Shown in pieces: positions 38,430-40,075 of a stretch of DNA of 64,000 nt (its first letter is position 1; each line of letters starts with the position of its first letter). The notes beneath the pieces were generated by a model. That model had not been told where the DNA came from and made no database searches. It was given only the letters and a program-made list of their open reading frames with translations. The DNA is from a bacterium. Lineage in GTDB: Bacteria > Hinthialibacterota > Hinthialibacteria > Hinthialibacterales > Hinthialibacteraceae. The stretch is from assembly GCA_963662285.2 (NCBI GenBank), contig CAXXMV010000003.1, forward strand, positions 224,001-288,000, written 5' to 3'. Both the position numbers and the translations under genes were made by a program.

Positions 38430-38606
38430 TGTATAATCCTTTCTGCAATAATGCCTGGTACTCTATCTAAATAACTTTAAATGTCGGATAACCCTATCCC
38501 CTCTCCCCCCGGGAGTGTAAAGGCCTGGGACATGGGTAACAGGTGTTCGGGGACATAGGTAACACATTTTCTGAGTGTATTCTAGCCTTGAAAGGAGGCG
38601 AAGAAT

Positions 38607-39773
38607 ATGCCCTGGAACGAGGTGGACCTTATGTCTCTGAGAAAAGAATTCGTATTGTTGAGCCAGCAAGAAGAAAGCAACATCAGCCAATTATGTAAAC
38701 GGTTTGATATCAGCCGTAAGACGGGTTACAAATGGATCAAACGGTACAAAGAAGGAGGAGGCGAAAATCTCCAAGACCGTTCCAAAAAACCCAATACTTG
38801 CCCTCATCAAACAGATAAGTCTATCGAGCAAGCCATTACAGAAAATCGCGAAAAAGGATGGGGAGGACGCAAAATTCGCTCTCGTCTGATTCAATTGGGA
38901 TACGAAAATGTTCCTAGCGCCAGCACTATTACTGCCGTGTTACGCCGACTGGGATTGCTGGATGAAAAGGAAAGTCACAAGCACAAAGCCTATAAGCGTT
39001 TTGAAAAAGATACGCCCAACGAATTGTGGCAAATGGATTTCAAAGGAGATTTTCCCACGCTCAAAGCACGCTGTTATCCGCTCAGCATTCTGGATGATTG
39101 CACGCGCTTTGTTCCCGGATTATTTTCGTGCGCCAATCAGCAAAGGGAAACCGTGCAAGACTCCCTGGAAAGCGTGTTCAGGATGTATGGTATGCCTCGG
39201 GCGATGTTGATGGATAACGGAAGTCCGTGGGGAGGATGCAAAACCTGCGAATACACCAGATTGACAATATGGCTGATACGATTGGGTATTCGCGTGTATC
39301 ACGGTCGCCCCTACCATCCGCAAACCCAAGGCAAGGTCGAGCGATTTCACCGGACCTTTAAGCAAGAATTGCTGATAAGGGAATCGTTTGTGGATTTGGA
39401 ATATTGCCAAAGGCGGTTTGATGAGTGGCGTTATGAATACAATTTTGAGCGTCCTCACGAAGCCCTGGATATGGATGTCCCGGCTAACCATTATACGTCC
39501 AGTCCTTTTGTTTATCCGGGAAGTTTGCCGGATATCGAGTACGCGCCGGGCAGCATTATCAGGAAGGTGCAACAAGGAGGTCGGGTGGCGTACCGTGGTG
39601 AAGATTACCGGGTGAGCCGCGCCCTGGTAGGATGCCCGGTTGCCTTGAAACCCGCTATGACCGATGGGATGATGGACGTATATTTTTGCCGACAAAAAAT
39701 CAAGACGCTCGATCTGCGTTTGAATGAAATCAAAGAAGATAACTTGGCAATCCAGAAAAAGGCGTCACAATAG
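38607..39773 (+). CDS. IS481-family DDE transposase
   Basis: MPW start, HTH (ISRKTGYKW), WQMDFKG, MDNGSPW, HPQTQGKVERFH, YNFERPHEAL; GGAGG RBS. Confidence 0.96.
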   Translation: MPWNEVDLMSLRKEFVLLSQQEESNISQLCKRFDISRKTGYKWIKRYKEGGGENLQDRSKKPNTCPHQTDKSIEQAITENREKGWGGRKIRSRLIQLGYENVPSASTITAVLRRLGLLDEKESHKHKAYKRFEKDTPNELWQMDFKGDFPTLKARCYPLSILDDCTRFVPGLFSCANQQRETVQDSLESVFRMYGMPRAMLMDNGSPWGGCKTCEYTRLTIWLIRLGIRVYHGRPYHPQTQGKVERFHRTFKQELLIRESFVDLEYCQRRFDEWRYEYNFERPHEALDMDVPANHYTSSPFVYPGSLPDIEYAPGSIIRKVQQGGRVAYRGEDYRVSRALVGCPVALKPAMTDGMMDVYFCRQKIKTLDLRLNEIKEDNLAIQKKASQ

Positions 39774-39774
39774 A

Positions 39775-39919
39775 AATTGGTTGGGCGAAACGGAAGCGGG
39801 CGCTGCAGGAGTGCAACCCGCCAGGGATAGCCGATCCGAGGTGCGAGGGATAATGCAGGAGGTGAAATATTCACCTCCTCCCTCTAAGCCAACCAATTAT
39901 CCTGAGCATCTCTAGATGC
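39775..39919 (+). ncRNA. Candidate structured RNA in the IS481 3' non-coding region (unclassified)
   Basis: 10-bp closing stem 39775-84/39889-98 enclosing GCGGG/CCCGC, TGCA-GGAG-TGCA and AGGAGGTGAA-ATA-TTCACCTCCT stems. Confidence 0.5.
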
Positions 39920-40075
39920 CTAAAAAAAAACTCAAACAATAACCTGGGATAAATCCGGTTTTGATAAAAAACTGTAACCCATGTCCCCGAACATGTGTTA
40001 CCCATCTACCCGGTCTGTACAGGGAGAGGGCTAGGGTGAGGGATATTTAAAAATCACTTATTACTCTTAATGCGT

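Follow-up and report, generated by a model that had tools for sequence, protein, structure and literature searches.

To our knowledge, insertion sequences (ISs) are thought to carry only what movement needs, and the IS RNAs known to us fall into two kinds, plain antisense RNAs that regulate a single element and guide RNAs that are tied to a single protein family. The RNA-OUT of IS10 is made from an element-internal promoter, lies antisense over the transposase mRNA and is presumed to limit transposase expression. Omega RNA is a structured RNA of the non-coding ends of IS200/IS605 elements. The IS256, IS3, IS481, IS21 and IS110 families have all been reported to transpose via circular copy-out-paste-in intermediates. 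Bridge RNAs, as described in a preprint, are structured non-coding RNAs in the non-coding ends of IS110 elements (bioRxiv 10.64898/2026.10.21.760802). Two further sources describe a 5'tnpA-derived small RNA of Salmonella IS200, which is highly structured and acts in trans on host genes (PMC12594629), and MRSC-65-2, a mobile/repeat sequence candidate from the Breaker lab that is characterized by a UYCCGG repeat and dozens of copies per genome (PMC11109978).

Throughout, “the window” is the whole stretch of DNA that was analyzed, 64,000 nucleotides in length, and positions are counted from its first letter. The element considered here and its gene are:

38516..40021, + strand: IS481-family insertion sequence, 1506 bp, with terminal inverted repeats and a target duplication
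38607..39773, + strand: transposase gene, 388 aa, with matches to NCBIfam NF033577 and to Pfam rve, rve_3 and HTH domains

The inverted repeats (38516-38570 / 39967-40021) are 55 nt long and 80% complementary, and the element is flanked by a 5-bp target duplication, GGGAG, at 38511-15 and 40022-26. It was assigned to IS481 on the basis of a transposase score of 266.8 bits against NCBIfam NF033577 (IS481 family transposase), which exceeds the curated cut-off of 224, together with the inverted repeats, the 5-bp duplications and the presence of multiple copies. The transposase is the only family-matched gene within the element, and a scan of the element for genes and family models found no TnpB, IscB or IS110-type protein. 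The genome carries 18 near-identical copies of this IS, 17 of them full and one without the first 12 nt, and a 5-bp target duplication was found in 16 of the 17 complete copies. Note that the window copy measures 1506 bp and the others 1507 bp, a hairpin string reading CCGG here (39953-39957) and CCCGG there. In one copy (C2:917640-919146) the two flanks do not match, a sign that copies may have recombined. A lone left inverted repeat of the window IS (53 nt, 100% identical) is present at G000 C2:869209-869261 with no element attached. An unrelated repeat of ~185 bp, with 83-98% identity across contigs, occurs at G000 ~C1:1158320-1158505 and at ~30 other sites, and is possibly a MITE.

Relatives were searched for using the whole IS as a DNA query. 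Matches were obtained only at IS positions 1269-1420 (39784-39935 in the window), in seven relatives and at one more place in the same genome, with 74-91% identity. All are at loci of non-IS481 type, none of which has the remainder of the carrier IS. These homologous loci can be aligned across the whole region and differ by compensatory changes, with the variants UGCG/CGCA, UGCA/UGCA and UGCU/AGCA in the helix designated P2a, and GGGUGUGC/GCAUUCCC versus GAGGUGC/GCAUCUC in P3. The 18 carrier copies, because they are near-identical, give no covariation information alone. Two covariance models were used. R1, which has the window copy in its seed, scores that copy at 145 bits and locates the RNA in 14 of 20 family genomes and 20 of 35 phylum genomes, frequently in multiple copies (this genome has 25 places, G016 has 19 and G007 has 6). 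R2 was built solely from 54 loci of other phyla, without the window's phylum. It finds the window copy at 96.6 bits (E 4.2e-21) as the sole match in the 64-kb window, and it recovers the identical 25 places in the genome.

An exact 30-nt core pattern was found at no fewer than 108 places (that is, at least 108) in a collection of species-representative genomes. The matches listed come mostly from Bacteroidota and include Acidobacteriota, Planctomycetota, Verrucomicrobiota (Verrucomicrobiales) and Oligosphaera, along with records from Nitrospira, Chlorobiales, Cloacimonadota, Armatimonadota, Sumerlaeota, Zetaproteobacteria, Desulfobacterales and others. One copy (L137) is in the record of the cultivable Oligosphaera ethanolica DSM 24202. 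The RNA family spans more than ten phyla. Note that 54 of the 81 aligned sequences were retrieved by the exact core pattern, so that invariance of the core in those 54 is partly by construction; members from the window's own phylum, found by BLAST and by model, carry the same core motifs. PLSDB plasmids queried with one proteobacterial-type member (L190) gave no match, and viral contigs scanned with the core pattern gave 0 matches. No Rfam 15 family matches the RNA, either in the window region, scanned at E up to 10, or in sets of 7 and of 17 homologous loci from many phyla, scanned at E up to 1. Apart from weak chance matches, the scans picked up only a tRNA and a group II intron, outside the RNA in two loci. 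In a Brocadiaceae record (L150:2179-3408), a group II intron lies beside the RNA, with a D1-D4 match at E 5e-5 and an RT/maturase fragment.

Judged from these sequence comparisons, 39771-39939 on the + strand is a copy of a widespread structured RNA cassette of ~165 nt with a promoter-like motif in register. Its parts in the window are:

39744..39771, + strand: promoter-like site TTGGCA-16-CACAAT from a consensus scan, within the last transposase codons
39771..39939, + strand: structured RNA, a member of an unnamed IS 3'-end RNA family (covariance models R2 and R1)
39775-84 / 39889-98, + strand: IS-specific 10-bp helix AATTGGTTGG/CCAACCAATT of the MFE fold
39784..39832, + strand: Domain 1, the conserved core (alignments A2-A5, pair counts, consensus)
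39784-86 / 39830-32, + strand: P1, GGC/GCC, weakened, with 3 contiguous pairs left
39788-94, + strand: AAACGGA motif of Domain 1
39796-800 / 39817-21, + strand: P2 of Domain 1, GCGGG/CCCGC
39804-07 / 39812-15, + strand: P2a of Domain 1, TGCA/TGCA with a GGAG loop
39823-29, + strand: AGGGATA motif of Domain 1
39838..39912, + strand: Domain 2 (P3, P4, P5), with helices 5-7 changing on both sides
39838-44 / 39906-12, + strand: P3 of Domain 2, GAGGTGC/GCATCTC
39848-54 / 39896-902, + strand: P4 of Domain 2, GGATAAT/ATTATCC
39857-66 / 39870-79, + strand: P5 hairpin of Domain 2
39916..39934, + strand: conserved single-stranded tail ATGCCT-A9-CTCA (alignment A4)
39944..39962, + strand: weak terminator-like hairpin CTGGGATAAATCCGG (hairpin itself 39944-39958), then TTTT

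The R2 match begins inside the transposase stop codon, the first conserved helix follows ~10 nt on, and the match ends 28 nt short of the right inverted repeat. All of the family motifs are present in the window copy (AAACGGA, the GGAG loop, GCAAC, AGGGAUA, and AUGCCU with the A-run). P2, P2a, P3, P4 and P5 are fully paired, and P1 is reduced, having two non-standard pairs in the cmsearch model alignment. In Domain 2, 89-91% of the cells of helices 5-7 are paired, and every pair of the window copy is standard. In alignment A4, conservation of ATGCCT and of the A run reaches 90% or more.

Covariation was assessed across the 81 aligned homologues, and the signal is very strong. Paired cells made up 91.9% of the total versus 63.1% in column shuffles (0 of 500 reached the observed value), where the alignments were fitted to the covariance model and pair counts should be considered somewhat inflated, the margin being very large. 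Changes on both sides were seen in 37 of 40 pairs, and pairing dropped to 33-45% when partner columns were slid by 1-3. In the family alignment, G-U/U-G combinations number 254 and A-C/C-A combinations 80, an excess that identifies the modeled (+) strand as the RNA strand. When folded by itself, the 199-nt region has an MFE of -66.3 kcal/mol, compared with -50.2 +/- 4.5 kcal/mol for 200 shuffles (z -3.59, with 1 shuffle equal), and its reverse strand folds about equally well (z -3.98). The equal folding of the two strands, like the location near the right inverted repeat, is what might be seen if the pairing operated at the level of DNA, whether as a cruciform or as a site near the IS end to which a protein binds, or if the fold arose by chance. 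We consider this highly improbable, since the G-U excess favors one RNA strand, promoters lie in register and covariation is far above that of controls. These same lines of evidence, along with the match to an out-of-phylum model, uphold the original prediction insofar as it proposed a structured RNA borne by the IS.

The fold that had been drawn from the window sequence held in part. Each of its pieces was located, namely the closing stem AATTGGTTGG with CCAACCAATT, GCGGG/CCCGC around TGCA-GGAG-TGCA (39804-39815), GAGGG (39845-49) with CCCTC (39880-84) under the 10-bp hairpin, GCATCT (39906-11) with AGATGC (39914-19), and the A9 run (39922-30). On comparison with homologues, GCGGG/CCCGC, TGCA/TGCA and the 10-bp hairpin proved to be conserved, whereas this IS alone has the closing helix, GAGGG/CCCTC and GCATCT/AGATGC, which compete with the conserved long-range helices P3 and P4. 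The closing helix is part of the MFE fold, is missing from homologues, and overlaps the 3' arm of P4. For the window copy, the family fold was computed at -49.9 kcal/mol versus -61.2 kcal/mol for the MFE fold, which is better by 11 kcal/mol. Given this IS-specific helix and the lower energy of the MFE fold, the window copy may fold differently from its relatives or may switch between the two folds.

A motif resembling a promoter lies in register upstream of the RNA, and by its sequence appears sigma-70-like in most phyla and TAnnTTTG-like in Bacteroidota. In low-GC loci, which are mainly from Bacteroidota, TTTG is located at -26..-10 from AAACGGA in 37 of 56 cases (8 of 56 for a control window). 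It often falls within TAnnTTTG, and there is a second TTTG peak ~28 nt further upstream; TAnnTTTG with an upstream TTTG is what we take to be the Bacteroidota promoter pattern. For higher-GC loci, TTGA[AC] is found at -46..-40 in 14 of 35, with controls giving 0 and 1. The window site is at the distance usual for the family, homologues having TTGAC-N17-TAAGAT-like sites with the same spacing from AAACGGA, and transcription from it would be predicted to begin near 39778.

A terminator-like site follows the tail in 8 of 77 loci versus 4 in the control region, and an intrinsic terminator was accordingly rejected as the normal end of the RNA. The terminator-like hairpin of the other carrier copies has one extra C (CCCGG) and therefore a longer stem than that of the window. 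In members from several phyla (L137, L145, L190, L165 and a second IS481-type element), the tail leads immediately into a similar GC-rich hairpin, whose loop is GGA or GGC (CUGGGGCGGAGCCCCAG is one such hairpin) and whose stem has no U-run directly after it. This hairpin may be a further conserved element or the element end. A small peptide starting at the conserved ATGCCT was also rejected, as the stop comes after 2 codons in many members and the lengths vary from 2 to 64 aa.

The termination data bear on a riboswitch-like explanation, by which Domain 1 would be an aptamer, its ligand a universal metabolite or second messenger, and the expression platform would be Domain 2 or a terminator, the two together deciding between antisense run-on into the transposase gene and transcription out of the IS. 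Invariant junction nucleotides around short covarying helices are aptamer-like, and in several members Domain 2 can form either local or long-range pairings that exclude each other. In one locus (L110, genome G021), Domain 1 is followed directly by a canonical hairpin-plus-U terminator, in an arrangement convergent on IS3 OrfB. However, terminators occur in only those 8 of 77 members, no Rfam riboswitch model matches, and gene context yields no ligand because the only linked genes are transposases. We regard a riboswitch as unlikely.

In every resolvable case, an insertion sequence contains the RNA, which abuts the last transposition gene at its 3' end. The original prediction treated it as a peculiarity of IS481, a view that does not stand, as the RNA is also found in IS256-variant, IS3, IS21 and IS110 elements. 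Most members are on the strand opposite the transposase (convergent) and overlap the transposase stop codon. The sense (co-directional) orientation is rarer, at ~1 in 5 members, and includes the window copy, which is nearest to the IS3-like remnants of relatives. The arrangements by transposase type are:

IS256 Zn-variant, ~300 aa, Bacteroidota (NF048019, 425 bits): all 27 loci convergent
IS3/IS481-type rve transposases: 8 convergent and 6 co-directional, with the RNA beginning between -3 and +25 nt relative to the stop
IS21: RNA past IstB at four loci (convergent at three, co-directional at one)
IS21, fifth locus: RNA overlapping the istA end, convergent
IS110: one locus in each orientation
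ISL3 gene: one divergent case

In convergent elements, the conserved tail is antisense to the final transposase codons. The stop codon of the IS256 Zn-variant is exactly 25 nt inside the RNA tail in 22 of 27 loci, and the last residues, ..EF(L/F)KA*, are consequently encoded antisense to AUGCCUU.AAAAACUC. IS256-variant transposases with this ending, antisense to the RNA tail, were observed at L116, L126, L175 and 24 other Bacteroidota loci, and an IS3 transposase at L115 ends in ..SFSKA*, likewise encoded antisense to the tail. The transposase reading frames of two unrelated families appear to have been extended into the cassette.

Distances to the end of the element were obtained for three other carriers. 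A second IS481-type element (G000 C1:1154599-1156418 and 4 more copies; 1820 bp, 357-aa transposase) has the RNA in convergent orientation ~195 nt from its end; a GC-rich hairpin and then a U8 run come after the RNA. The RNA of an IS3 element in G007 is ~150 nt from the element end as judged by comparing copies, and AAACGGA is ~125 nt from the element end in 1.23-kb Bacteroidota IS256-variant elements. Of the 25 RNA places in this genome, 23 are inside the two IS481-type elements and 2 are beside IS remnants. One copy of the second element is nested in a window-IS copy, 12 nt inside its left inverted repeat (C1:606204-609516). Several decayed IS remnants (L020, L078, L080) retain an intact RNA.

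The cassette could be a selfish hitch-hiker that brings its carrier no benefit, either a small parasite of ISs or debris that is recurrently captured, spread by recombination of nested elements. The running of unrelated transposases into the cassette, to end on the same antisense-encoded residues, resembles the outcome of insertion or fusion, and the nesting of one IS481-type element inside the left repeat of the other demonstrates that nested elements exist in this genome. Such a hitch-hiker is nonetheless a distinctly improbable explanation: compensatory change maintains both structure and promoter over very wide divergence, a 1.23-kb IS devotes ~150 nt to the RNA, and among the 25 places checked in this genome there is no cassette multiplying outside IS contexts.

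The same layouts can be read as those of a trans-acting cargo RNA that manipulates the host, for example as a processive antiterminator that binds RNA polymerase or as a decoy for an RNA-binding protein or defense factor. Any carrier IS would then benefit irrespective of orientation, and both orientations are indeed found, always with the promoter retained. Terminators are generally missing, decayed remnants have kept the RNA intact, and a core common to hosts of many phyla points to a universal partner. The convergent, stop-overlapping layout in 27 of 27 IS256-variant loci instead suggests a relation in cis to the transposase gene, and a cargo function seems to us a weak candidate, to be doubted about as much as a riboswitch.

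An uncatalogued RNA located beside the transposase end in many unrelated families probably matters for control of the elements. The cassette is widespread and is traded among unrelated IS families; the reading that we prefer, for which our belief and our doubt are about evenly balanced, is that it serves each element as a portable riboregulator. In the commonest layout, transcription would run inward from the IS end, usually without a terminator, and across the transposase stop codon. An RNA with this convergent, stop-overlapping and terminator-poor arrangement would act as an antisense or interfering transcript that restrains the transposase, and we infer that antisense pairing plus transcriptional interference is the simplest account of the dominant layout. 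However, antisense control is inapplicable to the window copy and the other co-directional members, and it would need no structure conserved across phyla. Conservation of the core across phyla, taken with the existence of sense-oriented copies, suggests a separate task for the structured domain, which would be the binding of a universal factor or ligand. The 5' domain (AAACGGA, GGAG loop, GCAAC, AGGGAUA) would bind a factor that is constant across many phyla, and would have been conserved because its partner is the same throughout, whether a protein of the host core machinery or a small ligand.

For the window copy, the RNA would be produced from the TTGGCA-16-CACAAT site or cut from the 3' UTR of the transposase mRNA. 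Being in sense orientation directly past the stop codon, it could act only via its structured domain or in trans, and the IS-specific 10-bp helix may alter or disable it. The weakened P1 of this copy, and an MFE that falls 11 kcal/mol below the family fold, count against its working as a riboregulator. A more specific version of the portable riboregulator is that the RNA is an accessory gene which is exchanged horizontally and which no fewer than five IS families, in more than ten phyla, acquired separately, with a near-invariant core that binds a universal partner. We put this forward tentatively, as possible and short of probable. Candidates for the partner are metabolites, alarmones, RNA polymerase and the ribosome. 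If this were true, transposase expression would be coupled to the state of the cell, and a sensor or antiterminator module would be traded among mobile elements.

The original prediction was of a regulatory or targeting RNA. A conserved structured RNA is present, for which a regulatory role is inferred; targeting found no support, and the restriction to IS481 was too narrow. The window IS sits centrally in REP-like palindromes of the form CCCCTCTCCC-N-GGGAGAGGGG (38470-38515 and 40022-40050 in the window, and 17 other sites). Every complete copy of this IS occupies the center of a CCCCTCTCCC..GGGAGAGGGG-type palindrome, and the 5-bp duplications vary among the copies. A guide for the transposase, like bridge RNA or omega RNA, would be a structured RNA in a non-coding IS end, as is the case here, and the P5 arm of the window copy (CCTCCTCCCTCT) resembles the C-rich arm of the insertion palindromes. 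However, that resemblance is confined to a paired stem, and the short words which the original prediction had pointed to as common to RNA and palindrome are located in a base-paired, poorly conserved hairpin. The 18 carrier copies have the same RNA yet different 5-bp target duplications. The second IS481-type element has a different variable hairpin (its P5 reads AAAGGGACGG..) but lands beside palindromes of the same class, so that target choice does not follow the variable parts of the RNA. In addition, the same RNA accompanies five to six unrelated transposase families. That this RNA guides the transposase is very hard to credit.

The RNA is distinct from the known guide classes by their defining features. 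Bridge RNAs and seekRNAs are encoded next to a DEDD recombinase of IS110 type and have loops complementary to target and donor, and omega RNAs overlap the 3' or 5' end of an adjacent TnpB or IscB gene. The present RNA differs from an IS110 bridge RNA or seekRNA in that its transposase is of the IS481-type DDE class and the palindrome class is shared despite a different hairpin, and from an omega RNA in that the 1506-bp element has no TnpB or IscB gene.

A covarying RNA that is found across unrelated transposase families and is absent from Rfam 15 suggests a common, unrecognized layer of control or host manipulation in transposition. With ~165 nt, a defined core and carriers among cultivable Bacteroidota, the RNA is a testable object, and it is useful in practice for marking where the 3' ends of these elements lie during annotation. 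Should the core turn out to bind a ligand or the transcription machinery, the RNA would represent a new class of riboswitch or antiterminator.

The accessible text (text only) of the literature searched, including PMC9723704, PMC2864571, PMC5737381, PMC11109978 and bioRxiv 10.64898/2026.10.21.760802, does not describe this RNA. As described in PMC11109978, the Breaker-lab candidates likewise covary, are abundant in many phyla and in some cases lie close to transposase genes. The present RNA is set apart from MRSC-65-2, by the description given there, in having different conserved motifs, a promoter-like site and a fixed position at the transposase 3' end; it could be identical to another of those mobile/repeat candidates under a different name. 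It is like the IS200 5'tnpA RNA in being highly structured and IS-derived, that RNA coming from the 5' end of one enterobacterial IS family and acting on host genes. Like RNAs of the IS10 RNA-OUT type, it is small, has a promoter (here predicted) inside the element and is opposite the transposase mRNA in most members. RNA-OUT-type RNAs are placed at the 5' end and start codon of one element, without structure conserved across families, whereas the RNA described here is at the 3' end and stop codon in several IS families, and is on the sense strand in the window. Like bridge and omega RNAs, it is a structured non-coding RNA in a non-coding IS end. Those RNAs are tied to one protein family (the IS110 recombinase; TnpB or IscB) and carry guide segments, whereas this one accompanies unrelated DDE transposases and nothing in it tracks the target. 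IS-borne RNAs are therefore known as such, and one common to unrelated transposase families is new as far as the literature was searched.
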